Shown here in pieces: positions 1 through 28,675 of a stretch of 64,000 nt of DNA. The stretch comes from Escherichia coli (lineage in GTDB: Bacteria; Pseudomonadota; Gammaproteobacteria; Enterobacterales; Enterobacteriaceae). The notes under the pieces are model-generated. The model had not been told where the DNA came from and did no database searches. It saw only the letters and a program-made list of their open reading frames with translations. Position numbers and translations under genes: made by a program. The stretch lies in the NCBI RefSeq assembly GCF_009931435.1, contig NZ_CP043414.1; one strand, 5' to 3'. The number at the start of each line of letters is the position of its first letter. The stretch's first letter is position 1.

Positions 1-2546
1 TCCAGCGCCGCGCGCATTTTCTCCTGACGTTTGGCATCGTAACGCTTCAGGCGAATCAGCGGTTCAATCAGACGTGAAGCCACCTGCGGGTTACGGCTGT
101 TGAGGTCGGTAAGCATTTCCACCAGGAACTGGTAACCGCTGCCATCTTCGGCATGGAACGCTGCCGGGTTGCTGCCCGCAAACGCGCCAATCAACGAACG
201 AATGCGGTTCGGGTTGCTCATGGTAAATGAGCGATGCTGCAACAGACCACGCACCGTCTCCAGCACATTCGCCGCCGGGCTGGTGGCTTGCAGGATAAAC
301 CATTTATCCATCACCAGACCATCCTGATGCCACTTGTCGTCGTACTCCTGCATCAGCGCGTCACGGCATGGCAGCTGTGCAGCAACCGCCGCAGAAAGCG
401 CGGCCAGCGCATCGGTCATATTGTTTGCTTCATGGAACTGCTTGCTTACCAGCACGTCAGCCAGATGCGTTTCACCAAAAGCGAGGAAGCGCAGGCAGGC
501 ATTTCGCAGAGTGCGTTTTGCAATATCTTCATGCTCAACGCGATACTCGCTCTGGTAATTCGCGTTGTAAATAGCCAGCAGCTCATCCGCCAGTTCAGTC
601 GCCAGAGTACGGGTGAGTGCTTCACGCACTTCGGCAATAGCAATCGGATCGATGATATCGAACAGTTCTGCCATTTCATTGACGGAAGGCAGCGTCAGAA
701 TTTCTGCCGCCAGCGCCGGATCAATCCTCTCATCGAGCAGCACCGCGCGGAAAGCGTCAGCCACATGCACCGGCAGAGACAGCGGCTGCCCTTGCTGATG
801 ACGGGCGACGTTGAGCTTGATGTAGGTTGCCAGCAGGCTTTGCGCCGCATCCCAGCGGGAGAAATCATTACGCGCATGACGCATCAGGAAGGTCAGTTGC
901 TGATCGCTCCACTTATATTCCAGTTTCACTGGCGCAGAGAATTCGCACAGCAGTGCGGGCACCGGCTGGAAGTAGACATTATCAAAGACAAAGGTCTGTT
1001 CCGCCTGGGTGACGTTCAGCACCGAATTCACCGGGTGACCGCCTTTCTGCAACGGGATCACTTTGCCTTCGTTGTCATACAGTTCGATGGCAAACGGAAT
1101 ATGCAGCGGCTGTTTTTCTGCCTGATCCGGCGTAGCAGGCGTGCGCTGGCTGATGGTCAGGGTGTACTGCTCGGTTTCCGGATTATAGTCGTCTTTGACG
1201 GTCACAACCGGCGTACCGGACTGGCTGTACCAACGGCGGAAATGGGAGAGATCGACATTTGACGCATCTTCCATCGCCTGAACAAAGTCGTCGCAGGTTG
1301 CCGCACTGCCATCATGGCGCTCGAAATAGAGCTGCATCCCTTTCTGGAAGTTTTCTTCGCCCAGCAGAGTGTGGATCATGCGAATCACTTCCGCGCCCTT
1401 CTCATAAACGGTCAGGGTGTAGAAGTTGTTCATTTCAATAACCATATCCGGGCGGATCGGGTGCGCCATCGGGCTGGCATCTTCCGCAAACTGCAACCCG
1501 CGCATGGTGCGCACGTTGTTGATACGGTTTACTGCGCGGGAACCAAGATCAGAGCTGAACTCCTGATCGCGGAACACGGTTAAGCCTTCTTTCAGGCTGA
1601 GCTGGAACCAGTCGCGGCAGGTCACACGGTTACCGGTCCAGTTATGGAAATATTCATGACCAATAACGCGCTCAATATCGAGATAATCTTTATCGGTCGC
1701 GGTATCGGTGCGCGCCAGTACATACTTAGAGTTAAAGATGTTAAGACCTTTATTCTCCATTGCGCCCATATTGAAGAAATCCACCGCGACGATCATATAG
1801 ATGTCGAGGTCATACTCCAGGCCGAAGCGTTCTTCATCCCATTTCATGGAGTTTTTCAGCGAGGTCATCGCCCATGGCGCACGATCAAGATTGCCGCGAT
1901 CGACGTACAGCTCCAGCGCTACTTCGCGACCAGAACGCGTGGTGAAGGTGTCGCGCAGTACATCAAAGTCACCTGCCACCAGCGCAAACAGGTAGCACGG
2001 TTTCGGGAACGGGTCCTGCCATTGTACCCAGTGGCGTCCATTTTCCAGTTCGCCTTGCGCAACGCGGTTACCGTTGGAAAGCAGGAACGGGTATTTGGTT
2101 TTATCGGCAATAATTTTGGTGGTAAAACGCGCCAGCACGTCCGGGCGGTCGAGATAATACGTAATATGGCGGAAACCTTCGGCTTCACACTGGGTGCAAA
2201 GCGCATCGCCTGACTGATAAAGCCCTTCCAGCGCAGTATTCGCCGCTGGGCTAATTTCATTAACGATCTTGAGCGTAAAACGCTCCGGCAAATTACTGAT
2301 GACCAGTGCGCCCTCTTCTTCTTTCCAGGCGGTCCACGTCTCATCATTAATATGAACAGAAACCAGTTTAAGATCTTCGCCATCAAGACGAAGCGGAGCA
2401 TCTGATGCACCATGACGGACAGCCTGGCTGACCGCGGTAACGACCGTCTTTTGCGCGTCCAGGTCAAAGGTCAAGTCAATATCAGTAATCTGGTAATCCG
2501 GCGCACGATAATCGTGACGGTATTTGGCTTGTGGCTGTTGAGTCAT
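1..2546 (-). CDS. pepN: Aminopeptidase N, partial: the window begins about 22 codons before the stop, so the C-terminal end is missing
   Basis: Reverse-strand translation from the ATG at 2546 reads MTQQPQAKYRH...; the window start translates to the PepN C-terminal region (...SNPNRIRSLIGAFAGSNPAAFHAEDGSGYQFLVEML...). Not in the ORF track because the stop lies outside the window. Confidence 0.93.
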   Translation of the reverse strand, partial: MTQQPQAKYRHDYRAPDYQITDIDLTFDLDAQKTVVTAVSQAVRHGASDAPLRLDGEDLKLVSVHINDETWTAWKEEEGALVISNLPERFTLKIVNEISPAANTALEGLYQSGDALCTQCEAEGFRHITYYLDRPDVLARFTTKIIADKTKYPFLLSNGNRVAQGELENGRHWVQWQDPFPKPCYLFALVAGDFDVLRDTFTTRSGREVALELYVDRGNLDRAPWAMTSLKNSMKWDEERFGLEYDLDIYMIVAVDFFNMGAMENKGLNIFNSKYVLARTDTATDKDYLDIERVIGHEYFHNWTGNRVTCRDWFQLSLKEGLTVFRDQEFSSDLGSRAVNRINNVRTMRGLQFAEDASPMAHPIRPDMVIEMNNFYTLTVYEKGAEVIRMIHTLLGEENFQKGMQLYFERHDGSAATCDDFVQAMEDASNVDLSHFRRWYSQSGTPVVTVKDDYNPETEQYTLTISQRTPATPDQAEKQPLHIPFAIELYDNEGKVIPLQKGGHPVNSVLNVTQAEQTFVFDNVYFQPVPALLCEFSAPVKLEYKWSDQQLTFLMRHARNDFSRWDAAQSLLATYIKLNVARHQQGQPLSLPVHVADAFRAVLLDERIDPALAAEILTLPSVNEMAELFDIIDPIAIAEVREALTRTLATELADELLAIYNANYQSEYRVEHEDIAKRTLRNACLRFLAFGETHLADVLVSKQFHEANNMTDALAALSAAVAAQLPCRDALMQEYDDKWHQDGLVMDKWFILQATSPAANVLETVRGLLQHRSFTMSNPNRIRSLIGAFAGSNPAAFHAEDGSGYQFLVEMLTDLNSRNPQVASRLIEPLIRLKRYDAKRQEKMRAAL

Positions 2547-10100: not shown

Positions 10101-11948
10101 TTACCTGATTAATTGTTCCGCTTTCGATACGATTTGCGAGCTGGATCGCGCAGGCAGATCATAATTGTAAATATCTGTACGATACTGGGTACGACCATCT
10201 GCACCAACAAAGGCCGTCAGATAGAAGAGATTCACCGGAATCGACTGCCGAATATTGACGTAACGCGTATCGCCCTGCTTCAGCGCATCAGAAATACGTT
10301 TGTCATTCCAGCCTGCATCCTGCAACAGCATATTCGCCAGATCGGAAGCTTTATTCACTCGTACACAGCCTGAGCTCAATGCGCGTGTATCACGCTTGAA
10401 CAGATTATGGTTCGGCGTGTCATGCAAATAAATGGCCTCTGAACTCGGCATATTGAATTTATAGCGCCCCAGCGAGTTCCGTGGGCCTGGAGCCTGCTGG
10501 AAGCGGAACGGTAAATTCGAGGCCGTGATTGTAGACCAGTCAACCTGCCATGGGTCAATCGCTTCTCTGCTGTTCCAGCCGCGCATCACCGTATAGCCAT
10601 GGCTTTCGAGATACCCAGGATCATTGCGCACTTTCGGCAGAATATCTTTGCGTGCCAGAGTTGGTGGTACGTTCCACGGCGGGTTTACCACCACGTTGTT
10701 AAGGGCACTACTCATCATCGGCGTTTTGCGATCGGGGCGACCGACAATGACTCGCGAATCCAGCACCTGATTGCCGTTCTGATAGTAGACCAGCGAATAG
10801 GCCGGAATGTTAACCATGATCCCGGTAGAAAGCTCTGTTGGCAGCAAGCGCAATCGCTGGATGTTGAGTGCCAACACGCCAGCACGCTGGGCGGGCGTTA
10901 CGTTTAACCAGTCACGCGTTGCCGGGCCAATAGCACCATCTGCCCCCAATCCTTGCCATGCCTGAAAACGTTTAACGGCTTCCACCAGTTCATTATCGTA
11001 GGCGGCACGAACGACAGGCGCAGGTTTACTACGAGACGTAGTTTGCTGGTCCATCGGCTTAGTTTCTGCTGTTTCAACAGTAACAGCGGATGGGCTGACT
11101 ACCGCGTCAGTTGGCGTGTCATCGCCAGGTAGAGTAATTTTCGGCCCCCCGTCCAGCATGCCTGTACGCTGCAATATTTCGCGCAACGCCGGTACGTCGT
11201 TACTCCACTGCCCTGGGCGCAACGTTGCTTTGCCGGTCAGTTGGGGCCACGGTTTGGTGTCACTGAGTAAGGCCAGTAACGATTCATGCATCGCCGCATA
11301 TTGCGGATGCTGCGGTGCCAGTCCTGCAACAAACGTCGGCAATTGACCTTTATCCAGCGCCAGCTGCCATTGGTTAATCACCGAGAGCGGCGGCGTGGAA
11401 AGCGCATAAGGTTTACTGCTGTATAGCCAGCGAGTGCCTTTGACCGGAATATTTGCAATGAAATGGAGATAGCCCATCATCGCATCAGAGAGCACCACAT
11501 CGCGTGCCATCCCGTTAATACCAGGATCGGTCAGCAACTCTACCCATTTATTAAACTGCGGCTGGAAACCGGCAATCGCCACCTCTGCCAGCTGTTGCTG
11601 GAAGGCTTTAACAGCATCACGGTTTTCCCACATGGGTTGCATATCGCGTGCGGCATACAACAGTTGAAGCTGGTTAAGATAAACCGGCTTATAGCCTGCA
11701 GGTAATTGAGATTCGATTTGCGTGCGGGCTTTTTCTGCCGCACCTTCAGGCAATGGCTGGATCCCCGCCATTATTGCCGTGACCTGCGCCTGCGGCAGTG
11801 CCTCGCCCTGTTCGCTGACAGCCACCGGGCTGTCGCCAGGGATTACTTCAGGCTCATCGGCCTGAGCATTGAACAGTGGAGCGAATGTTACGGCCACGCA
11901 CAAACTGATTGCCGACAGCCGACGACCACACATCATATTAAGCAACAT
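10101..11948 (-). CDS. ldtD: L,D-transpeptidase LdtD (YcbB), YkuD domain
   Basis: 615-aa ORF; signal peptide, peptidoglycan-binding-like region, C-terminal catalytic region with the SSGCVR cysteine motif. Confidence 0.93.
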
Positions 11949-12184
11949 CCCTTGCCCCCTGTTTTTATCATACTCTGAATAGCCAGGCTGTTATTTTACG
12001 ACTTGCCTGTACAACGCCAATACTCACGAAAGTATGACGAGCAAGCCTGTTACTCATCAGGCTTATCTTCAGTATATAAACGCCGATACGTTTTTACATA
12101 ACCTAATGTAAAGAAGTTTAAAGAAAAGCGCGCCAGAATGTGGCACTTTTTTAGTGCAGAAACGGAGTTTTCAGAAACAGGAAA

Positions 12185-12202
12185 GGCGGCATCGCTGCCG
12201 CC
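12185..12202 (-). terminator. Candidate terminator hairpin downstream of mukB
   Basis: GGCGGC-atcgct-GCCGCC just after the mukB stop; the trailing sequence on the minus strand is only moderately U-rich. Confidence 0.4.
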
Positions 12203-12208
12203 TCAATC

Positions 12209-15200
12209 TTAACTCGCCTGGGAAGGCGCTTCGTCAGTTCCTGGAAGCGTTTCAGGGAGTTGCGGTGCAAAACCACGCAGACCGACTACGTGAACGTGTT
12301 CGGTATTCTGGAAGACTTTACGCACCAGTTTATAGGTGGTGCCTTTTTCCGGGCTGATATTTTCCGGCGCTGCGATGATGAGCTGCATTTGCAAACGCTC
12401 ACACAATTCAAACAGCGTGGCGATGGAACGGGCATCCAGTCGCGCTGCTTCATCAAGGAACAGCAGACGGCAAGGAGAGATATCTTTACCGCGCAAGCGG
12501 CGAGATTCATCTTCCCAACTCTGTACCACCATCACCAGAATCGACATACCGGTACCAATAGCCTCACCGGTCGACAATGCACCAGATTCCGCGCGCAACC
12601 AGCCATCGGAACCACGGTTAACCTCAACTTCCATTTCAAGATAGTTACGGTAATCCAGCAGTTCTTCACCGATGGTCTGCGGCGTGCGCTGCCCCATATC
12701 AATCTGCGGATTAAGGCGCTGATACAGTTTCGCCAGCGCTTCCGAGAAGGTCAGACGGTTGCTGTTAAACAGATCCTGATGTTGTTCGTGCTGTTCAGAG
12801 AGCACATCCAGCAGCATGGCGTGCGTTTCACGCACGTTCACGTTGAGGCGCACGCTGTTCACCTGGCCAAACGATACGCTCTGCAAGCCCTGGTTGAGCA
12901 TACGGATACGGTTCTGCTCGCGCTGAATGGTTTTGCGAATAATGTTCGCCACGCTGCGGGAACTGATCGCCAGTTTCTGTTCGCGGGAGGTTAACTCTTC
13001 AGTCAGACGGCTAAGTTCGATCTCCATCTGCTCGATAGCTTCAACCGGATCATCGGTACGAATAATATCCTGACGAATACGCTCGCGCAGATGCTGATAA
13101 ACCGCCACGAAGAACTGAATTTTACGTTCCGGACGTTTTGGATCTTCCGACATACGCAGCACGTCGCGCAGATGTTCGTTATCCGCTACCGCGAGACGCA
13201 ACGCACCCAACGCCTTATCCGACATGGAACGCAAATCATCAGCGGAGAGATAAGCCAGCTCACGACGGTGTAAGCGGCGCTCAACACCGTTATCTTTCAC
13301 CATGCGCATCACTGCACACCAGCCCGCTTTCGCGGTCACTACCTGCTCGCGCATCTCAAAGTAATCACGCTCCAGCTTGCGCAGTTTGCGGGTCAGGTTG
13401 TCCATCTCCGCTTCGCAGAAGGTAAGCGCTTTTTCCAGTTGGTTGCGGCGTGAACGGTTATTGCTCAGTTGCGCGTGCAACTCGTCACGGCGAATACGCG
13501 CCCGCTCTTCTGCCCCGCTATCAGCACGCACGCCGATATCCTGCAATTCACGTTGCAGATCGTTGAGTAGCTCTTTTTTGGTGTCGTAAGAACTTTTCAG
13601 CGAAGCCAGCACCTGGTTGTACTGACTCAACTGCGCTGCGTGTCCGCGCAACGCTTCACGAGCGCGGGTACGCTCCGCTTCCGCCTGTTCCAGACGTTCA
13701 CGCAGTTTTTCGTTGAGATCGCTGTTACCGCTAAGCATTTCTGCCGAGTCAGAGTAGCTAAAGTGCGCACGACGCTGCACCACTTCCGTCAGGGCAAACG
13801 CCTGCTGACGGGCATCGCGCTGCATCTGCTGAGAGTACGCGTAATCTTCTTTTAACTGTTCGAACTGTTCCGGGTCGCTCTGCAATACCGAAACGATCGG
13901 TTCCAGTTTCGCCAGTTGATTGCCAAACTGCTGAACAAAACGCGCGGCTTCCTGGGCTTCATCCAGACGTTCGCGGATTTCATCGACGCGATCTGCCAGG
14001 CTGTCATCAGCCAGCAGGTTAAGACGCGGCAGAATGCGGTTCAGGGCCGTAACGCCCTCTTTCGCCTGCTCAAACTGAATACGCTGCTGCTGGTTATCAT
14101 TTTCATGATTACTCAACGCCCGCTCCAGTTCGACGCGACGGCTGTTCAGTTGACGGATTTCTGCTTCCGGGTCAGACTCAAACGCCACCGCCAGATGACT
14201 ACCTATAAAGCGGCTGAACGCCTGATGCAGACGCTGGGTTTTCTGTACATCAAAAGAGAGTGTGGCGAAGCGTTCGGAAAGCACTTCACGTTCGGCATGG
14301 AGGCTTTCGATGCGGCTTTCGCGAGCAGCACGACCAAACAGCGGCACTTCCGGGAAACGTGAATAACGCCACTGACGATCGGCGATTTTCACCACTACCG
14401 CTTTTTCCAGCTCATCAACGCTGAACACGCTGTCATCGAATGACTGCGGATCCCCTTCGATCAGATAGAGATCTTCCGGGCAATCGGTCAAGCCTTCCAG
14501 GTGTTCGGTTACCTGTGACAGATCTGACACCACGATGGCGTGGCGTGACGGGCCATACAGTGCTGAGAAGTACGGCGCATCTTCCAGGCTAACGTCGTCA
14601 TAAATTTCTGACAGCAACACGCCGCCAAAACGCTCCGCCAGCGCATTCAGACGCTGGTCTTCAGAGCCGCCTGGCTGGCTTAAACGTTCGATCTCTTCAT
14701 CGACGGCGTTTTTGCGTGCGCCAACTTCGTCACGTTCAACAATGGCTTCGCGCTCACGCTCCAGCAACTGTTGCAGATATTCGGTGACGTCCTGGCTTGA
14801 GGAGAATTCTTCGCCGCACTGTTCGCTCAACTGGTTGAGACTGTTTTGCGCTGCCAGCCAAACCGGCGCACGCTGCATCAAACTCTGAATGCGAGACTGC
14901 AGCTGTTCCTGCTCCTGGCGCAGTGCCATCCGCTCTTCTCGGGCGTTAGAGACGCTATCGGAAAGAGAGGCAATGCGTGCTTCCAGCTCCTGATGCAGAG
15001 CTTCCAGTTCATCAATATCAAAATTCTTGCCCTGACGTTTGCAGAAATCTGCCAGCAGACGCTCAGCTTCTTGCTGTTCACGCAGACGCTGTTCCAGTTC
15101 GCTTAAGCGCATCCGCAACGGCTGAACCTGCTCTGCCAGGTGACGCTGATCGACCCCTTCGCGCAATAGTTCGCGAGCGACATCCCACGCCTCGTTACGC

Positions 15201-16669
15201 GCCAGCGGGCCGTTGATTGCCACCACCAGCTGATAAGCCTGCTCAAACTGGCTGTGCGCGGTTTGCGCCATGCTCATTTTCTGCTCAAGAGAGAGCATTT
15301 TTTCGGTCGCTTCCAGCTCTTTCGCCTGGAAGGTTTCCAGCCATTCGGCGGCGCTGTCGGCGGTTAAGTCCGGCAGATGGCACAGTTCTTTGGCACGATT
15401 AAGCGCAGCAATCGCCTGGTTGTACTGGATCGCGCGCGTTTGCTGGACGTCCAGCGCCTGCTGGTAGTCAGCAAGCTGGCTTTTCAGCTCGTCCACTTCC
15501 AGCTCGGCAGCTTCCGCACGAGCCTCGTTCTCTTCCTGGCGTTCGATGGCTTCTGCCACCACTTCGTTTTGCTCTTCCAGACGGATCTGCAGCTCATCGA
15601 GATCCGCTTCGTAGCGTTCGATCTTCTCCTGCTGACGTAGTGCGGTTTGCACCAGGTTCAGGTGATCGCTGGCCGCCTGATAATCCGCTTCCAGATCGCC
15701 TTCGGCACCATTGTGCTCAGCCAGCTCACGCGCCATATCGACATGCTTGTACTGCTCTGCCGCCAGTTGCTGACGCGAAGTGTGAAGCTCACGACGAAAC
15801 TCCAGCGCTTTATCCAGGTGAACACGGCGCTCGTTGGCGTGGCGCATGTAGTCCGCCGCCACGTAGTTAGTCGCTTCGCTGATCAGATGCTTGAACAAGT
15901 CACGGTCAGACTGGGTAACACGAATCGCTTCCAGCGTCATACGGTTTTCACGCAGCGCCGCTTCCATGTCCTGAAACGCTTTACGCACGCCGCTATTTTC
16001 TGGCAACAGGTAGTCGCGCAGAGAACGGGTGATGGCGCTGGAAATCCCGCCGTACAGCGAAGCTTCAATCAGACGATAGAATTTACTACGATCAGACGCT
16101 GAGCGCAGACGACGTGCGATGATGCCCAGATCGAACATCAGCGAGTGGTAATCGGTAATAGAGTTGAACTGCTTAAACTGCACGCCTTCCATCGCTTCGA
16201 GCTTGTCTTTCAGCTCGTTAAGCGGCAGCACGCGCGCCTGACGTTCATTCAGAGTTTCGGTCACCAGTTGTGTCGGCTGCACCGACATCGGCAAGCCCTG
16301 AATGGCAAATGGTTTGATATCAACTTTACGATCGCGCCCGGCAACCTGTTGCAGACGCACACCGACCACTACACGCTGGTGGCGCGAGTTAATGGTGTCG
16401 AGCATCGAATAACAGACACCCGCTTTCAGCTTACCGTGCAGACCTTTATCGCGCGAACCGCTGGTGGCCCCGGCTTCCGTAGTGTTACGGAAATGCAGCA
16501 GGGTCAGGTCGGGGATAAGCGCCGTAACGAACGCCGCCATGGTGGTGGATTTACCCGCCCCGTTACCGCCAGAAAGCGTCGTGACCAGCTCGTCAAGGTC
16601 AAAAGTTCGGGCAAAAAAGCCGTTCCAGTTAATCAGCGTCAGTGAGCGAAATTTACCGCGTTCAATCAT
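12209..16669 (-). CDS. mukB: Chromosome partition protein MukB (SMC-like condensin subunit)
   Basis: 1486-aa ORF; N-terminal Walker [10 protein letters not shown], long coiled-coil arms, C-terminal head; matches MukB. Confidence 0.97.
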
Positions 16670-17373
16670 TATTCTTCCTCTCCGCTATCTGGCTGATTCT
16701 CTTCGGTTTCATCGTTGAGTTGCAGATGATTTTCAATCGGCATTGCTTCGCCATCACGAATCAGGCGACGCTGTGCTTCACGGGGATCGTCGCCAGCACG
16801 CACATCGGCTCCGAAGCGGAACACCGATTCGGTAATGCGGAACTTGCTGCTGTCGTGGCCCATAAACCACACCATGCCTAAACGACGCAGACGGTTGAGC
16901 GAAGAACGTACTTTCTCCTGCAACTTCTGCCGGTCAACGTCTGAACCGGTTGAACGGTTGTTCACCAGTTTCAGCAGTTTCGCTTCATCGGCCAGGGTGA
17001 GCAGTTCATCGTACAGTTCCTGCTGGGTGAAAATCCCCTCATTCGCCAGCCGTTCCGGGCTGAGATAAAGATAACAGAGGATTTTCCCGACCATCATATC
17101 CAGTTCCGACAAGACGGAACGAGGGATAATAGTGGTGGAACGTGGGCGTAAATAGAAGAACCCCTCCGGTGCGCGAATAAGCTCAACGTTATAACGCGCG
17201 TAAAATTCTTCCAGATATTCCTGAAAATCCATCAGGAATGCATGATTATCCAGTTCGTCAAGGCCAATATGGCGGCCTGAACGTAAGGCGCTATCCAGCG
17301 CCGGAAATAACGGATTCGCCAGCGCCTGCGCCAGCTTAACCGGCATCACTTGTTCAATATTTGTCGATGACAT
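16669..17373 (-). CDS. mukE: Chromosome partition protein MukE
   Basis: ORF 16669..17400; start placed at the internal ATG 17373 ([16 protein letters not shown]...), with 17400 or a further internal start possible. The stop shares one base with the mukB ATG (TAATG). Confidence 0.9.
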
Positions 17374-18676
17374 GCGCCTGTACCTTGGCTCCGTAATCAT
17401 TAATCGGCTGCCATTTCGCTGGCAGTCCGGTGAAATCTGCTTGCGCTACGCCAAGACGTACCGCCTGATCAATAACAATGCGCGCAACGTCAAAGTGACG
17501 TGCACGCGGATACTGTGACAGATATTCGCGTACCACCAGACCAAGATCCAACGGCACTTGTCTGGTTTTGTACACGGCAAGTTGTTCTTCGATGATCGCC
17601 GCCAGCTGTTCGCGGATCTCGTTAAACTCTTCGTACTCCAGATCCTCAGGAAGTTCCCCAGTCACTTCTTCATCGCGCAGTGCCATCTCTTCGTCACGCA
17701 TATCCAGCAGACGATCGGCATTGGCATAAGTTAGCGCCCACGGTTCATCAAAATAGGTTTGTACCGACTGACGTAACCGCTGAGCAAAGACGCGGTTTTT
17801 ATCCATATCGATAGCGGTACGAATAAATTTGTGTACGTGGCGGTCGTAGCCAATCCATAAGTCGATGGATTGCTGGCCCCAGCTGATAATACGGTCAAGT
17901 TTGCTTTGCAGATCGAACACCAGACGATCGACGAAATGCAGATCATCATGAGTCATCGTCGCATCCTGAATGCGTAACAGATTAGCCTGCAATTTATCAC
18001 CTGCCGCTTCCAACGTATCCTGCAATTCACGCAGCGTTCCGGAAGTTTCCGAAAGCAACAATTCACAGCTGGAAATCGCCGCCCGCCAGTCTTTGTTCAA
18101 CAACTGGGCGATATCATCCTTCACCTGCTGCTGCTGTTCATCCATCAGACGTTGAGTCAGGTCGATACTGTCGAAAATTTCTGCTACCGAATATTTCAGT
18201 GGCGCATAGACATTACGGTGCCAGTGAAACTCATCACCGCCCTCTTCGGCGGCATCTGCCGCGCGTTTCAGTTCGCCCGCCACAATCGACAACTGCATAG
18301 AAAGGCGCAGCGTCGAAAACTCGCGCTGACGGATGTAGTAATCGGTAATACCGATGCCAAGCGGCGTCAGACGGTAAATTGCGTTCCCTTCAGCCTGCTC
18401 GCTGGTAAAGCGGTTCAGCAGACGTTGACGAACCATGTCGTTGATCGCGTTGTTGGCGCGTACGCCGATGGTTTCGCTGGTTTGCTCAAACGCATCACTC
18501 ACATGGCGGAATGCATCCACCAGCTCGCCTTCACTCATCTCACCATCCAGACGCTCGCCGTTCAGCGTGGCAACCGCCAGCAGAAAAGAGAGTCGGTCTA
18601 CCGGCAGCGAGATGGAGAAGTCATTTTTTCTGGCCCAGGCAACCAGTTCGGGGACTGTCTGGGAAAATTCACTCAT
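17354..18676 (-). CDS. mukF: Chromosome partition protein MukF (kleisin)
   Basis: 440-aa [37 protein letters not shown]...; matches MukF. Its 3' end overlaps the mukE start. Confidence 0.96.
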
Positions 18677-19458
18677 ACTTTATCCTTGCTCTGCGGTTTG
18701 CGCGCGGTGACATGAATATAACGCCCCAGGGTAATATACGGTTCCTGACGGCAATAACGCGTTTCTAATTCAAGTAATGCTTCATAGCAGTCGCGCTGCT
18801 GGTGCTTCTCGCGCAGGTAATCATGAAACACGCGAACGCCGGTCTTACCCATAATTTGCCAACCAGCTTCTTCCAGCCACAGATAAACCTGCGCCGGGTC
18901 GCGTGGATAATCTGGCGAAAGCGTCCGTTTTTTCTTTTTCGGCATTCCCGCCTGCACGTAATCAAAATTCCCTGCAACCATGTTATGCATCAGCAAGCCG
19001 TGCGCATTGTAGAACATTAACGACAACACACCGCCTGGACGCAACACTGACCACAGGGTCTGCAATACGCTGCGGGGATCGGCCACCCACTCGAGCACCG
19101 CATGGAACAATATCAGATCAACGGGCGTTTCCAAATGCGAAGCAACATCCTGAGCGGCGCAATGTATAAATTGCATGTTGTCGCTCACACCTTTTGCTTC
19201 TGCCGCCTGTTTTGCGCGGTCGATCATCTGCGCTGAAAGATCGCATAAAATGACCTGATGCCCACGCTCGGCCATTTTGATTGCGGTCTGCCCTTCTCCA
19301 CCGCCAGCATCCAGCACACGCAGTTTTTGCGAGCCCATTTCCGCCAGCACGCGATCGAGATCCTGCCACAGAATAGCCTGTCGAAGCTGCCCTTTGGTGG
19401 TGCCGTAAATGTTACGGGAAAACTTTTCCGCAATATCATCAAAATTGCGATCCTGCAT
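18673..19458 (-). CDS. cmoM: SAM-dependent methyltransferase CmoM/SmtA (tRNA cmo5U methyl ester formation)
   Basis: ORF 18673..19470; start at ATG 19458 ([19 protein letters not shown]...), 261 aa; SAM-binding motif VLDAGGGEG; 4-nt ATGA overlap with mukF. Confidence 0.92.
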
Positions 19459-19593
19459 TGCTTTCTCCACCGGTTGGCTAAGACGTTTTCTGATAAAGAC
19501 GCTATTTTGTCACAGCCACGGCGAGAATGAACCCGTCTGGTGTAATATCGCTGGCGATCCCTTGCTATATGGTCAAAAAAGGAACCAGAAAGG

Positions 19594-20373
19594 ATGCTTT
19601 TTACACTGAAAAAAGTGATTGGCGGTATGCTGCTGCCACTTCCGCTGATGTTGTTGATTATTGGCGCTGGCCTGGCGCTGCTGTGGTTTAGCCGTTTTCA
19701 AAAAACCGGGAAGATTTTTATTAGCCTTGGGTGGCTGGCGCTCTTGTTATTGAGTTTGCAACCGATAGCCGACCGCCTGCTGCGTCCCATCGAAAGCACC
19801 TATCCGACATGGAATAATTCGCAAAAAGTGGACTATATCGTGGTGCTCGGAGGTGGTTATACCTGGAACCCGCAGTGGGCACCGAGCTCGAATTTAATCA
19901 ATAACAGTCTGCCACGTCTGAATGAGGGTATTCGCTTATGGCGCGAAAATCCGGGATCAAAACTGATCTTCACGGGAGGCGTAGCAAAAACCAATACGGT
20001 GAGTACAGCCGAAGTAGGTGCAAGAGTTGCGCAATCGCTGGGTGTCCCTCGCGAGCAAATTATCACCCTGGATTTGCCAAAAGATACCGAAGAAGAAGCT
20101 GCGGCAGTGAAACAGGCGATTGGTGACGCCCCTTTCCTGCTGGTAACCTCCGCATCACATCTGCCGCGGGCGATGATCTTTTTTCAGCAGGAAGGGTTAA
20201 ATCCGCTGCCAGCCCCGGCGAACCAGTTGGCCATCGACTCGCCGCTTAATCCGTGGGAACGAGCAATCCCTTCTCCAGTCTGGTTAATGCATAGCGATCG
20301 TGTTGGCTATGAAACGCTTGGCCGCATCTGGCAGTGGCTGAAAGGTTCGTCAGGCGAGCCACGGCAAGAGTGA
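19594..20373 (+). CDS. elyC: Envelope biogenesis factor ElyC (DUF218 inner membrane protein)
   Basis: 259-aa ORF with N-terminal transmembrane segments; matches ElyC/YcbC. Confidence 0.9.
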   Translation: MLFTLKKVIGGMLLPLPLMLLIIGAGLALLWFSRFQKTGKIFISLGWLALLLLSLQPIADRLLRPIESTYPTWNNSQKVDYIVVLGGGYTWNPQWAPSSNLINNSLPRLNEGIRLWRENPGSKLIFTGGVAKTNTVSTAEVGARVAQSLGVPREQIITLDLPKDTEEEAAAVKQAIGDAPFLLVTSASHLPRAMIFFQQEGLNPLPAPANQLAIDSPLNPWERAIPSPVWLMHSDRVGYETLGRIWQWLKGSSGEPRQE

Positions 20374-21243
20374 TTTTGATGCCAGATCGAAGTTGCGCCG
20401 ACTAAATCGTCCGGTGTTGACCAGTTGCGCAACTTCATCCCATAACACATACAACCAACGCCGCCAGATGAACGACTCCGCCACTGGCGCGCGTTGCAGA
20501 TAACTCCAGAGCAAATCTTCCGCCAGAGAATTATCCATTAGTCGGAACAGTTCGTATTCTCGCGGTGCCCAAAGCATTAGTCCCGGTCCGACCATCGCCA
20601 GTAACTGATCGCTGCGCGAATCTTTCAGCATGCTGCGTAAACAGAAGTTACCGTGAATCAGCACACAATTGTCGTTAAAGCCTTCAAATAATGCCGGGAG
20701 ACATTCACGGGTGCGAAACAGGATCCGCTTATCCTGCATCGTTAGACCGGTGTTATTGAACTGATTGAGCGTAGTCCATAGCACTTCAACATGTTGCCGG
20801 TACCATGAGGGCCAGAAATTTTCCTGAGTATTGTCGACCGCGCCGACGCAACCACGACTGTCCTGACGGTGCCAGGCCAGTAAGGCTTCAACGATTTGGT
20901 CTTTGAGTTGTTCCCAGCGTTCTGGTGTTCGGGCTGGTGCCTCCACCGAAACACCACGCATTCGCTCCAGTAGCAGGACATCGGGGCCGGGGTGTTCTTC
21001 ATGCGTCATCACACCATAAATAGTCGGCATACGGACAGTCCCACTTCTTGCCAGCATGGTGGTTTTCCATGCCAGTTGTCGGGCTTTTCCGGGCGCACTA
21101 AAGCTTCTTGCCATTAACGGCATTGGGTTTCCCTGGCTGTCATACAAAGCCCACAACGCCGTATCCGCTTTTTCATTGACGCACTCAATACGACTGAGTT
21201 TTTCGCCCAGTAAATGGCTTAATTCGGCACGCAGCTGTTCCAT
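20350..21243 (-). CDS. ycbJ: Kinase-like (phosphotransferase-fold) protein YcbJ, function unknown
   Basis: 297-aa ORF matching YcbJ; its 3' end overlaps the elyC 3' end by 24 bp on the opposite strand. Confidence 0.88.
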   Translation of the reverse strand: MEQLRAELSHLLGEKLSRIECVNEKADTALWALYDSQGNPMPLMARSFSAPGKARQLAWKTTMLARSGTVRMPTIYGVMTHEEHPGPDVLLLERMRGVSVEAPARTPERWEQLKDQIVEALLAWHRQDSRGCVGAVDNTQENFWPSWYRQHVEVLWTTLNQFNNTGLTMQDKRILFRTRECLPALFEGFNDNCVLIHGNFCLRSMLKDSRSDQLLAMVGPGLMLWAPREYELFRLMDNSLAEDLLWSYLQRAPVAESFIWRRWLYVLWDEVAQLVNTGRFSRRNFDLASKSLLPWLA

Positions 21244-21396: not shown

Positions 21397-22322
<926 letters not shown>

Positions 22323-23642: not shown

Positions 23643-24629
23643 CTAGTTGCCAGAAGCCAGCGAGGTTAGTTGCGCAAGCAGTTTCGCTGGTTCATCGCCT
23701 GAAAGCTGTGCGTCAACAGGCAAATACCACCAATTTTCATCTGCAAAGGCCCGGCATTTCACCGCATCTTTTTCAGTCATTACTAGCGTTTGCCCGTCGC
23801 TTACCAACGCGCTGACATCCGTATAATTCAAAGACTGATGATCGGCCAGTGGTACACATTTTTCCGGTTGTACGCCGCACATCTTCAGCGTGGCAAAAAA
23901 GCGCGGCGGATGCCCAATCCCCGCCATCGCCACCACATGTTCAAGTTGAGCAACGTCACAACGCGTACCGGTACGTAAATTCACCGCCTGCCCCGGCAGC
24001 AGATGCATGGGGATTTCACCGCTGCGGGGGACACCGCCGTTGACGATTACCGCATCAACCGACTTTAAGCGCCCCGCTCGCTCACGCATTGGCCCCGCCG
24101 GCAACCACCAGCCATTGCCAAAGCGACGCACGCCATCAATAACGACGATTTCCACATCACGCGCCAGACGATAATGCTGTAAACCGTCGTCGGTTACGAT
24201 GATCTGCACATCAGGGTGTTGCGCCAGAATGGCTTTTACCGCATCAGAACGCACGGGAGAAACCGCAACAGGCGCGCCAGTGCGTTGATAAATCAACACT
24301 GGTTCATCACCCGCCTGTGCTGTGGTGGTATCTACCGACAATAACAGCGGATAAGATTCAGCCTTACCGCCATATCCCCGGGACACGACTCCCACGCGAA
24401 TACCGCGCTGTTGCAACTGTTCCACCAGCCAGACAACGACCGGAGTTTTTCCGTTGCCGCCAGCGGTGAGATTACCAACCACGACAACCGGTACGGGGGC
24501 ACGCCAGGCGCGCTTCAATTTTAGTTTATAGCAAAGACGGATCGCGCCACTTATCAGGCCATACAACCAGGAGAGTGGCAGCAATAGCCGCCACAAAGGG
24601 GATTCACCAGACCAGATTTTTTCGATCAT
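23643..24629 (-). CDS. lpxK: Tetraacyldisaccharide 4'-kinase (lipid A biosynthesis)
   Basis: 328-aa ORF; Walker A-like [12 protein letters not shown]; matches LpxK. Confidence 0.96.
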
Positions 24630-26410: not shown

Positions 26411-28675
26411 CTACCCGTTATCCACTGGCACGCCAAACCACTGATGATACCAACGAGGTAAAATTTGCTCTCTGAGGCTGCTAATCCGCCAGCCTTGCGC
26501 TGAAAAATTGACCGTTATTTGACCCTGATGTGGAGTATCAAGCCACTTATAACCCTGTTGTTGATAGCGATGTTTAACTTTGCTTGAGGGCAGTCGCCAT
26601 GCGTTATAGCGCGATGCCGATGCGAGTGCCACTTTTCCATTCACTCGCTGAATTAATGGCAACGATGATGAGGTATTACTGCCATGGTGAGGTACCTGAA
26701 GTAATGTTGCCTGCATTTGCTGCCAGTAACGGCTTAGCATCTTTTGTTCAGCGGGGGCTTCAATATCACCGGTTAGGAGAATGCTATTCGTCCCGTCATC
26801 AACCTTAACCACACAGGAATGGTTATTTCCTTTATCGTTGCTACCTTGTAAAGGCCAGTGCACGCTGAAACGCAATCCTTGCCATTGCCACGCTTCGCCA
26901 CGCACACAGGGCTGATGATGTTCCCAGCTTAAAGGGCTTCTGACCCATAACGTCGGCCAGGCTCGTAATATCGAGTCCAGCCCTCCCCGATGATCCAGAT
27001 GTTCATGACTAAGAATGACGCCTTCTGGTTCAAGATTATGCCAGCGTAGCCAGGGGATAATCAGTTGTTGCCCACTATCCCCCTCCGGCCAGGCCAGTCC
27101 GGTGTCATAGAGAATCGCTTTACCGTTTCTGGCTATCACCATTGCCAGCCCTTGCCCGACATCAAGCATGTACACCTGCCACGCGTCAGGCCGAGGTTTT
27201 TGCCACAGCGGCCAGCACATCAGCAAGCCTCCAGCCACACACATTGCCGGCAACGCTCGCCAGGCGTTTAATCGCCATACCACCAGTAAGAACCATGGGG
27301 AAAATGTTAGCCATTGCCAACGTTCAGCAATGTTGATCCACCCTTCCGGCAAACTCTTTAACCCCCAGAAAAGTAAAGCCAAAGACCGGTCGGCAAGAAA
27401 CCATAACCCTTGTTCCAGAATAAACGGCCCGCTTAAATGCACAACCATCGCGGCGAGAATCAACGGAACCGTGATAAATGTCACCAGGGGAATTGCAAAA
27501 AGATTTGCAATAAACGAGGTCAGACTAATGCCATGAAATATGACAATTTGCACGGGCATAAGCAGGAGGGTGATTCCCAGTTGCAGATGGATGAGGGAAA
27601 CAACCGCGCGCAATGCTGGCGGCAGCTGCCACTCCGGACAGGGAAACCACTGATACCAAAAAATCAGCGCCGCTACCGCAGCGGCAGAGAGCCATAAACT
27701 TTGCGAAAGAATGGCAACAGGATCCATCAGCAAAATTGCCGCCAGACAACATATCCATACATCCCAGCCACTCCATTGTCGTCCACTTAACTTAAGCATT
27801 CCCCAAATGGCAAGCGCCACCACGGTACGCAATGCAGGAGGCTGCATTCCCGTTAGCCAGGCGTAAAAAGCAGCACAGCAGATTCCACCAATTAATGGCA
27901 TTTGCCAGTGGATCCAGCACCCAGGCAGAAAAACTTGCCCACCGCGAATGAGTCCTGCAGCCAGCAACGCCGCAAAAGCGATGTGCAATCCTGATATCGC
28001 CATTAAATGCGCCGTTCCAGTATCACGCATGATATTTTTGATTTCTTTGGGGACGGATAACCGTTCCCCCATACCTAATCCAAGAATAACCGCGTTCCAC
28101 ATATAGGGTTGCAGCGTTGTTTGTAGTGACGCCAGATACTGTGCACGCAGGCTACAATTCGGTTCAATGACACTTGCCTGCAGAAAACGGCCGGTGAGCG
28201 GTTGATGCTGGGCAATGGCATAACGCTGGCTATCAAAGCCGCCATCATTAAGTTGGCCATGAACTGCACGAACTTTGAGTTTCATTGACCATACTTGTCC
28301 GGCACAAACCGCTTGCGGAAGATATTCGCCATACAGTACGAGGCCTGGCGCAGGGAATATACGTCGACCTTGTAGATGAGTAATTTGACCGTAATGAGTG
28401 GTCATGCCGTCAGTAGCAGTGATCTCAACTATTGCATCCTGCGTCGCGCCAGTTAAGGTTTCTCCTGCCCACAAAATTTGCTTTGCCGCTAATATGCCCC
28501 AAAGAAAAAACAGCAGCGTCAGCGCGATATAACGGACGGCTTTAACAGGAATAAATGCCAGTACGCAGGCGAAGACTGTCAGAAACGCAAGGGTTAATGT
28601 CCCAGGCAATTGGGGCAAAATCAACAACGGAAAAATTCCGCAAATTATGCTTACGCCGACTGTCGTTATTTTCAT
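26411..28675 (-). CDS. ycaI: ComEC/Rec2-family inner membrane protein with C-terminal metallo-beta-lactamase domain
   Basis: 754-aa polytopic ORF with HEHLDHRGG and HHGS motifs in the C-terminal domain; matches YcaI. Confidence 0.9.
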   Translation of the reverse strand: MKITTVGVSIICGIFPLLILPQLPGTLTLAFLTVFACVLAFIPVKAVRYIALTLLFFLWGILAAKQILWAGETLTGATQDAIVEITATDGMTTHYGQITHLQGRRIFPAPGLVLYGEYLPQAVCAGQVWSMKLKVRAVHGQLNDGGFDSQRYAIAQHQPLTGRFLQASVIEPNCSLRAQYLASLQTTLQPYMWNAVILGLGMGERLSVPKEIKNIMRDTGTAHLMAISGLHIAFAALLAAGLIRGGQVFLPGCWIHWQMPLIGGICCAAFYAWLTGMQPPALRTVVALAIWGMLKLSGRQWSGWDVWICCLAAILLMDPVAILSQSLWLSAAAVAALIFWYQWFPCPEWQLPPALRAVVSLIHLQLGITLLLMPVQIVIFHGISLTSFIANLFAIPLVTFITVPLILAAMVVHLSGPFILEQGLWFLADRSLALLFWGLKSLPEGWINIAERWQWLTFSPWFLLVVWRLNAWRALPAMCVAGGLLMCWPLWQKPRPDAWQVYMLDVGQGLAMVIARNGKAILYDTGLAWPEGDSGQQLIIPWLRWHNLEPEGVILSHEHLDHRGGLDSILRAWPTLWVRSPLSWEHHQPCVRGEAWQWQGLRFSVHWPLQGSNDKGNNHSCVVKVDDGTNSILLTGDIEAPAEQKMLSRYWQQMQATLLQVPHHGSNTSSSLPLIQRVNGKVALASASRYNAWRLPSSKVKHRYQQQGYKWLDTPHQGQITVNFSAQGWRISSLREQILPRWYHQWFGVPVDNG

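Follow-up and report, generated by a model that had tools for sequence, protein, structure and literature searches.

Overlapping gene junctions and the MukE start in the cmoM-mukF-mukE-mukB operon of Escherichia coli

Introduction

Do the abutting and overlapping stop and start codons of cmoM, mukF, mukE, and mukB couple the translation of the condensin subunits and set their ratio, and at which ATG does MukE begin? The K-12 smtA-mukF-mukE-mukB operon (Yamanaka et al., 1996, as cited in PMC4255302) is described as a single operon (PMC4255302, PMC3871593), and putting Para in place of the promoter upstream of smtA raised MukB ~6.3-fold (PMC7163298). An smtA-mukFEB operon is also predicted in Vibrio fischeri (PMC3948606). 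We examined these genes in a 64-kb stretch of E. coli DNA (contig NZ_CP043414.1; hereafter, the window), for which a preliminary description had proposed tight coupling and fixed stoichiometry, and had considered the MukE start undecidable from sequence alone.

Results and Discussion

The operon and its transcription signals

The region is the known E. coli cmoM(smtA)-mukF-mukE-mukB operon, in which a tRNA methyltransferase gene precedes those of three condensin subunits (MukF, MukE, and MukB):

18673..19458, minus strand: cmoM (smtA) coding sequence, 261 aa, tRNA cmo5U34 methyltransferase, first cistron (NCBIfam NF008264 equivalog and RefSeq)
17354..18676, minus strand: mukF coding sequence, 440 aa, kleisin subunit (NCBIfam NF003615, end-to-end match 1-440)
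16669..17373, minus strand: mukE coding sequence, 234 aa, KITE subunit (RefSeq start; PDB 3EUH, 9GMB, and 9GMD are the 234-aa form)
12209..16669, minus strand: mukB coding sequence, 1486 aa, SMC-like ATPase (NCBIfam NF003422)

All four proteins scored far above the curated cut-offs of their NCBIfam equivalog profiles (CmoM, 503.9 bits vs. 366, NF008264; MukF, 844.9 vs. 407, NF003615; MukE, 411.6 vs. 250; MukB, 2644 vs. 699, NF003422), and RefSeq assigns the same identities in K-12 MG1655 and in a 99.3%-identical genome. The gene names, their order, and the place of cmoM as first cistron, as originally described, are right for this genome (NCBIfam, RefSeq). The four genes, their order, and their strand relation are common to the window and K-12 (b0921-b0924), where the operon is 96.9% identical in nucleotide sequence and all three junctions and the surroundings of the MukE start are identical; we found no difference of substance beyond lineage divergence. 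The region was present in 5,425 of 5,426 E. coli genomes, only 5 of which reached ≥99% identity over 3.6 kb, indicating that the window represents a somewhat divergent E. coli lineage. Erwinia, Rahnella, and Ca. Symbiodolus share this gene order, as do 77 Enterobacteriaceae loci. The survey of genome contigs covered Enterobacteriaceae at 92-99% identity, wider taxa being sampled individually, and the starts in other genomes are gene-caller predictions.

Lying on one strand with spacings of -4, -20, and -1, the genes leave no space for an intergenic promoter or terminator. A consensus scan of the minus strand from 11800 to 19800 returned, as its only promoter-like sites, two downstream of mukB, and a terminator-like structure at the 3' end:

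12183..12204, minus strand: terminator-like hairpin of 9 pairs, 6 of them G-C, with a T-rich tail, just 3' of the mukB stop (consensus scan)

This hairpin probably marks the end of the operon. Within cmoM-mukF-mukE, the scan detected neither promoter-like nor terminator-like sites of comparable quality, and an internal promoter in mukF serving mukE-mukB was rejected on the same basis. An Rfam scan of the whole window gave no known RNA family within the operon. A single polycistronic mRNA would start upstream of cmoM and end at the hairpin after mukB.

The cmoM/mukF and mukE/mukB junctions

The outer two junctions, with the Shine-Dalgarno (SD) motifs that precede cmoM, mukF, and mukB, are as follows:

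19465..19468, minus strand: GGAG SD motif 5' of the cmoM ATG at 19458 (anti-SD duplex, -6.4 kcal/mol)
18683..18687, minus strand: AAGGA SD motif for mukF, within the 3' end of cmoM (duplex, -5.2 kcal/mol)
18673..18676, minus strand: ATGA junction, a 4-nt overlap of the cmoM TGA (18675..18673) and the mukF ATG (18676..18674), read directly
16676..16683, minus strand: GGAGAGGA, SD motif for mukB, lying in the codons for the acidic C-terminal tail of MukE (duplex, -6.6 kcal/mol)
16667..16671, minus strand: TAATG junction, a 1-nt overlap of the mukE TAA (16671..16669) and the mukB ATG (16669..16667), read directly

The preliminary description had placed these correctly: the coordinates of all three junctions hold on the minus strand, and both the ATGA shared by cmoM and mukF (...AAAGT ATG A GT) and the TAATG in which mukE and mukB share one base (GAA GAA TAA TG) are read directly. 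The cmoM start is ATG 19458, where the NCBIfam CmoM profile and the RefSeq annotation begin, and not GTG 19470, as given by the open reading frame lister; its SD duplex is better than those of 98% of the remaining operon ATGs.

Among 77 Enterobacteriaceae loci, the window included, the cmoM/mukF spacing was -8 in 34, +3 in 32, and -4 in 11. The cmoM stop therefore varies among three sites within the family, while the mukF SD motif is constant; GCAAGGATAA lies 5' of the mukF ATG in each of six further Enterobacteriaceae loci that were displayed and that represent all three stop positions. A stop that shifts in close relatives beside an unchanged SD motif favors an explanation without functional coupling, according to which the overlaps would be by-products of gene packing and drifting stops, each cistron would be initiated independently from its own SD motif, and subunit ratios would be set by initiation strength. 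However, the spacing always lay between -8 and +3 across the loci surveyed, a range considered reinitiation-competent (PMC10666635). Upstream of mukF in the three Pasteurellaceae loci examined, cmoM was absent; its linkage is not a general property of mukFEB.

The mukE/mukB junction is, judging from the loci compared, the most widely conserved of the three. TAATG was found in 78 of 81 Enterobacteriaceae loci and ATGA in the other 3, and TAATG recurs in Pasteurellaceae and in a 57%-identical relative. That the spacing stays at -1 or -4 in the 81 loci, is again -1 in Pasteurellaceae, and ranges from 0 to -11 in the other relatives examined argues against overlaps that merely drift. The SD duplex of mukB ranks among the best 1% of operon ATGs.

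In Pasteurellaceae (Actinobacillus porcinus-like L082 and L083; A. succinogenes L090), the order mukF-mukE-mukB is that of the window, the mukE/mukB TAATG follows a GAAGGAG SD motif in a junction like that of the window, and the MukE N-terminus is homologous. In contrast to the window, a divergently oriented gene takes the place of cmoM upstream of mukF, and mukF and mukE do not overlap but lie 34-65 nt apart, a separation that again favors initiation of each cistron on its own.

The mukF/mukE junction and the start of MukE

The 3' end of mukF reads ...GAC AAA TAT TGA, with the TGA at 17356..17354, and mukE lies in the +1 frame relative to it. Three in-frame mukE ATGs, at 17400, 17373, and 17346, would give a 47-nt overlap, a 20-nt overlap, and a 7-nt gap, respectively. 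The features of this junction are:

17354..17373, minus strand: 20-nt stretch shared by the end of mukF and the beginning of mukE (ATG 17373..17371, TGA 17356..17354), from comparison of loci
17378..17398, minus strand: mukF codons 427-433 (GAT TAC GGA GCC AAG GTA CAG), the embedded mukE initiation region, from synonymous-site invariance
17344..17346, minus strand: internal ATG (Met10; 225-aa form), 7 nt past the mukF stop, invariant in 80 of 80 Enterobacteriaceae loci
17398..17400, minus strand: farthest upstream of the in-frame ATGs (243-aa form), rejected as the MukE start

The open frame has its first ATG at the most upstream candidate, which is an ATG in 63 of 80 loci. However, the remaining 17 have ACG, a change that is synonymous in mukF (an AAT/AAC Asn codon), and the site has no SD motif, its duplex of -1.8 kcal/mol being the median of background ATGs; we therefore rejected it. 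The NCBIfam profile and all solved structures also begin at or after residue 10 of the 243-aa frame, leaving practically no chance that MukE starts at 17400 with a 47-nt overlap.

Comparative evidence strongly supports ATG 17373 and a 234-aa MukE, so that the preliminary description was too pessimistic about the start, and its overlap of at least 20 bp becomes one of 20 nt. All 80 Enterobacteriaceae loci have the -20 spacing with an ATG, and it recurs in Erwinia, Rahnella, and Ca. Symbiodolus, an invariance that counts against overlaps left by gene packing. The N-terminal length equals that of the 234-aa protein in 119 of 120 Enterobacterales homologues, and the Pasteurellaceae N-terminus, of which MNENLQDLISTK and MTENIQDLIPTK are the commonest forms, aligns with the N-terminal residues of the 234-aa E. 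coli form. Codons 427-433 of mukF, which hold GGAG at 17389-17392 and AAGG at 17383-17386, are the only long synonymously invariant run in the gene (7 codons vs. 2 for the next longest, among 77 unique coding sequences), and synonymous entropy over the 10-codon window 427-436 is 0.029 bits, compared with 0.924 on average for the gene. Codons 1-10 of mukE, which follow, are devoid of synonymous variation. Erwinia, Rahnella, and Ca. Symbiodolus share the AAGGT, and the mukE SD duplex amounts to -4.7 to -5.8 kcal/mol. Two other readings of this region were rejected: the invariant block bears no resemblance to sigma-70 hexamers and is not a promoter candidate, and no slippery or prfB-like motif occurs in ...GAC AAA TAT TGA that could direct a programmed frameshift to a MukF-MukE fusion. 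No published N-terminal protein sequence of MukE was found in the literature searched.

ATG 17346 is a possible minor second start. Were mukE to have dual starts, SD-directed initiation at 17373 and reinitiation at 17346 would produce isoforms of 234 and 225 aa. In favor of this, ATG 17346 is invariant in all 80 Enterobacteriaceae loci and mukE codons 1-10 show zero synonymous variation; it is the candidate nearest to the mukF stop, as favored by the scanning model (PMC12548453); and the 225-aa protein folds and has been crystallized (PDB 7V8P, 3RPU). In addition, Syn61 retains forbidden codons in the essential mukE, because the gene coordinates had been altered and an older annotation with the 225-aa start was used (PMC13287592), and derivatives lacking the cognate tRNAs are viable. 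If, as we infer, those codons are the TCA TCG that the long form carries as its codons 2-3, a second start might explain the viability of recoded strains that cannot read them. However, no SD motif precedes ATG 17346 (+0.4 kcal/mol); Pasteurellaceae have Ile in place of Met10, which is also missing from Ca. Symbiodolus despite the -20 overlap there; and mukF and mukB likewise vary little at synonymous sites over their first 10 codons, as would any 5' coding end. Dual initiation is thus quite unlikely, and we hold ATG 17373 to be the start of MukE.

Overlaps, translational coupling, and stoichiometry

Overlapping genes are frequent in bacteria, and the junctions described here, in an operon whose gene order is already published, are therefore correctly described but ordinary. 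The commonest spacings of co-directional E. coli pairs are -4 and -1, 707 of 2,987 pairs fall in the range from -8 to +6, and the -4/-1 spacings are enriched 4.5-fold for heteromeric complexes (PMC10666635). Since 5 of the 35 co-directional neighbors in the window overlap and three of those five belong to cmoM-mukFEB, the chain is real and denser than average, as is typical of operons encoding heteromeric complexes. Of the three spacings, -20 alone is uncommon.

Reinitiation has been demonstrated for spacings of -8 to +10 (PMC10666635). The cmoM/mukF (-4) and mukE/mukB (-1) junctions lie inside this approximate range, which makes coupling there plausible by analogy, whereas mukF/mukE lies outside it at -20 and would enter it, at +7, only with ATG 17346 as the start. 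Four of five native overlapping E. coli pairs tested were coupled and one was not (PMC6728339); most tested -4/-1 pairs are coupled (PMC6728339, PMC10666635), which speaks against independent initiation of the muk cistrons, while bioBF provides an overlap without coupling (PMC6728339). [quoted passage not shown] As differences, CmoM is not a complex subunit, the -20 of mukF/mukE is beyond the tested range, and coupling of the muk genes is putative. A parallel for mukF/mukE is the coat-lysis junction of phage fr (-38 nt; Adhin and van Duin, 1990, reviewed in PMC12548453), where the start also lies tens of nucleotides 5' of the stop; however, the lysis start depends on coat termination, whereas mukE carries its own conserved SD motif. 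No coupling or polarity experiments at the muk junctions were found in the literature searched.

No masking of the starts by RNA structure was significant relative to shuffled sequence. Folding of 110-nt windows at the junctions was no better than that of shuffles (z = -0.96, 0.06, 0.88, and -0.87). A small hairpin at 17399..17365 (-8.3 kcal/mol) places the mukE AUG in the stem and AAGG in the loop, with a z of -1.44, and 16 of 200 shuffles folded as well. Because the mukE initiation block is invariant, the alignment contained almost no covariation there. With an SD motif at each of the four starts and no significant folding at the junctions, fully independent initiation is possible. The preliminary description had named independent ribosome-binding sites and a lack of polarity as signs against coupling; the former are seen, in that an SD motif precedes each start.

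The stoichiometry of the complex bears on the same question. The complex is B2(E2F)2 or B4(E2F)2, with MukE and MukF at 2:1 (PMC6907758). Since one reinitiation per termination could not yield this ratio, coupling alone cannot fix the stoichiometry, and the claim of fixed stoichiometry through coupling was overstated. That the 2:1 ratio needs independent initiation (PMC6907758) also favors the explanation without coupling. Set against the invariance of mukF/mukE, the confinement of mukE/mukB, and the behavior of tested pairs, we regard that explanation as possible but rather unlikely. A second functional MukE start might help to reach the ratio, each translation of mukF adding one coupled MukE to those initiated independently; we consider this slightly less likely than the dual starts themselves.

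On balance, it is very probable that the operon is expressed from one mRNA, with MukE starting at 17373 and each downstream cistron beginning at an ATG whose SD motif lies within the upstream gene, at its 3' end (AAGGA for mukF, GGAG/AAGG for mukE, and GGAGAGGA for mukB). Since the cistrons are tightly packed, ribosomes finishing one of them probably promote initiation on the next, conceivably by termination-reinitiation at the -4 and -1 junctions and by holding the embedded initiation region unfolded at the -20 junction. Newly recruited ribosomes, directed by the SD motifs, would have to contribute as well, at least at mukE, since the complex takes up two MukE for every MukF. As a result, the condensin subunits would be expressed in a co-ordinated but not intrinsically fixed manner.

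As a discovery this is minor, the operon, its order, and the generality of -4/-1 overlaps in complex-encoding operons all having been published. The placement of the MukE start at 17373 is relevant to genome recoding and to construct design, some crystal structures being of the truncated form. Since the last dozen codons of mukF carry the strongly constrained mukE initiation region, synonymous substitutions in them should not be assumed to be neutral. As a separate observation, the preference of the scanning model for the start nearest the stop (PMC12548453) runs against the scheme proposed here, pointing to ATG 17346 and not 17373.

The cmoM-mukFEB Operon and Its Junctions

The region is the cmoM-mukFEB operon, already known and reported as a single smtA-mukF-mukE-mukB operon (smtA being cmoM; PMC4255302, PMC3871593) in which a promoter swap upstream of smtA increased MukB ~6.3-fold (PMC7163298). 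Its elements in the window are as follows.

19458..18673, minus strand: cmoM, 261 aa
18676..17354, minus strand: mukF, 440 aa
17373..16669, minus strand: mukE, 234 aa
16669..12209, minus strand: mukB, 1486 aa
12204..12183, minus strand: terminator-like hairpin 3' of mukB

NCBIfam equivalog models for CmoM, MukF, MukE, and MukB all scored far over their curated cut-offs. RefSeq annotation places these genes at matching coordinates both in a 99.3%-identical genome and in K-12 MG1655, where they are b0921-b0924. Of 5,426 complete E. coli genomes, 5,425 contain the 3.6-kb stretch. Across the operon, identity between the window and K-12 is 96.9%, and none of the three junctions differs. The lineage of the window is somewhat divergent within E. 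coli, as identity over 3.6 kb (16000..19600) is at least 99% in 5 of the 5,425 genomes and 95-99% in the others.

Read directly on the minus strand, the coordinates bore out the preliminary description of all three junctions. At cmoM/mukF (J1), ATGA is common to the mukF ATG (18676..18674) and the cmoM TGA (18675..18673), and at mukE/mukB (J3), TAATG is common to the mukE TAA (16671..16669) and the mukB ATG (16669..16667). At mukF/mukE (J2), the mukF TGA lies at 17356..17354 and in-frame mukE ATGs occur at 17400, 17373, and 17346 (243, 234, and 225 aa, respectively). Co-directional overlaps make up ~15% of gene pairs in most prokaryote groups (PMC6728339). Of 2,987 co-directional pairs in E. 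coli, 707 are spaced at -8 to +6 nt (negative values denoting overlap), the spacing seen most often is -4, with -1 and -8 next, and subunits of heteromeric complexes are 4.5 times more frequent among pairs at -8 to +10 than among pairs >20 nt apart (PMC10666635). Since -4 and -1 rank among the commonest spacings, J1 and J3 are textbook cases, and only J2 (-20) falls in a rare class; the architecture is ordinary for an operon encoding a complex. By annotation, 5 of 35 co-directional neighbors in the window overlap, three of them at the muk junctions. The other two, ycaR/kdsB (22140..22143) and msbA/lpxK (24626..24629), are 4-nt ATGA overlaps near the operon and illustrate the local frequency of such junctions.

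Conservation was assessed in 80 Enterobacteriaceae loci, with genes located by tblastn. J1 spacing took three values (-8, 34 loci; +3, 32 loci; -4, 11 loci), and the mukF Shine-Dalgarno (SD) context GCAAGGATAA occurred in every locus displayed, spanning all three cmoM stop positions. The cmoM stop shifts, but always inside the range thought competent for reinitiation. cmoM lies upstream of mukF in all Enterobacterales loci of sufficient length, and for Vibrio fischeri an smtA-mukFEB operon has been predicted (PMC3948606). The three Pasteurellaceae mukFEB loci examined instead have a divergently oriented gene in the place of cmoM. J2 was -20 across all sampled Enterobacterales, +34 or +65 in Pasteurellaceae, +85 in a 57%-identical relative, and -8 or -32 in two more distant relatives. 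J3 was the most widely kept: 78 of 81 loci have TAATG, as do Pasteurellaceae and the 57%-identical relative (variants: 0, -4, -7, and -11).

Comparative Evidence Places the MukE Start at 17373

The MukE start had been considered undecidable from sequence alone; comparative sequence firmly assigns it to 17373 and rejects 17400. A homologue of ATG 17373 with the -20 spacing was found in 80/80 Enterobacteriaceae loci. ATG 17400 is ACG in 17 of the 80 through synonymous mukF Asn codons (AAT/AAC), and it has no SD, scoring -1.8 kcal/mol, level with the median for 125 background ATGs.

The case for 17373 is strongest at the synonymous sites of mukF. Among 77 unique sequences, mukF averaged 0.924 bits of synonymous entropy per degenerate codon, with 5.9% of those codons invariant. 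Codons 427-433 (GAT TAC GGA GCC AAG GTA CAG; 17398..17378) were nevertheless all invariant, against a longest run of ≤2 codons elsewhere in the gene, and the 10-codon window 427-436 had the gene's lowest synonymous entropy (0.029 bits). This block places GGAG at -19 to -16 and AAGG at -13 to -10 relative to ATG 17373. Because it lies upstream of the mukF/mukE overlap, dual coding does not explain its invariance, and at 33-53 nt from ATG 17346 it is too distant to serve that codon. The comparison shows an initiation region for mukE under selection inside the last codons of mukF; this strong constraint, the start at 17373, and the rejection of 17400 are the additions made here.

The block and the -20 spacing also occur in Erwinia, Rahnella, and Ca. 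Symbiodolus, and in N-terminal length 119 of 120 Enterobacterales MukE homologues match the 234-aa form. Pasteurellaceae MukE N-termini, e.g., MNENLQDLISTK or MTENIQDLIPTK, align with that of the 234-aa form over 13 residues, with Ile at the position of E. coli Met10 (ATG 17346). Since mukF and mukE do not overlap in Pasteurellaceae, the nine N-terminal residues are real coding and not a shadow of mukF.

A dual start, in which 17373 is joined by ATG 17346 as a secondary start yielding some 225-aa MukE, has a low probability. ATG 17346 is invariant in Enterobacteriaceae, sits 7 nt past the mukF stop, and would give a 225-aa protein that has been crystallized, but it has no SD and is unconserved outside most Enterobacterales. 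The reading arises from recoded genomes such as Syn61. TCA and TCG are the two serine codons taken out of the Syn61 genetic code. Forbidden codons were kept in its essential mukE owing to altered gene coordinates (PMC13287592). The choice of start affects a single stretch of mukE, ATG TCA TCG ACA AAT ATT GAA CAA GTG, so these codons are probably TCA TCG, codons 2-3 of the 234-aa form (17365..17370, minus strand). If so, the viability of strains without the cognate tRNAs would suggest either that some MukE can start at ATG 17346 or that residual decoding is enough.

ACA triplets lie just 5' of both ATGs, in ACAGGCGC before 17373 and ACAAGTG before 17346 (17381..17383 and 17351..17353, minus strand). 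A list of MazF-processed, polysome-associated mRNAs includes mukE and puts the cleaved ACA 7 nt away from its start (PMC5001579); counted from the first A, this distance suits ATG 17346 better, so the older start may have been the one used there. Cleavage at ACA would split mukE-mukB off mukF under stress. A 6-bp hairpin (CUGCCA-GCGAAA-UGGCAG) lies in mukF codons 418-423 (17411..17428, minus strand), 38-55 nt 5' of the mukE start. Its inner four pairs are mostly conserved across Enterobacteriaceae, and since its arms encode Leu-Pro and Trp-Gln, protein constraint may account for the pairing.

Proposed Translational Coupling and Stoichiometry

The overlaps had been taken to imply tight coupling and fixed subunit stoichiometry, an interpretation supported only in part. 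An SD precedes each of the cmoM, mukF, mukE, and mukB starts. None of the junctions folds better than shuffled controls; a small hairpin with the mukE AUG in its stem (-8.3 kcal/mol, z -1.44) is weak and non-significant, and covariation for it was unobtainable because the block is invariant. Among native overlapping pairs of E. coli, coupling was found in four of five tested and not in one (PMC6728339), and our literature search found no coupling, polarity, or start-mapping experiments on the muk genes. We infer likely coupling at J1 and J3 and possible coupling at J2, where a terminating ribosome might move backward to the mukE start or ribosomes translating mukF might hold the region open.

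By reinitiation, each upstream termination can give rise to no more than one downstream start. The Muk complex is B2(E2F)2 or B4(E2F)2 (PMC6907758), so MukE is required at twice the level of MukF. Given both constraints, some MukE would have to be initiated independently, at the conserved SD of mukE, and stoichiometry fixed by coupling is an overstatement.

Other Observations in the Window

The convergent genes elyC (19594..20373, plus strand) and ycbJ (20350..21243, minus strand) share 24 nt at their 3' ends (20350..20373), an arrangement also seen in K-12. The sole Rfam match in the window was the STnc130 sRNA (52127..52261, plus strand; 141 bits, gathering score 55), placed by coordinate mapping between dmsA and serS. 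The 754-aa ORF of ycaI, a ComEC-family gene (26411..28675, minus strand), is intact here; the annotation of NZ_CP027579.1, the closest complete genome, calls ycaI a pseudogene with an internal stop.
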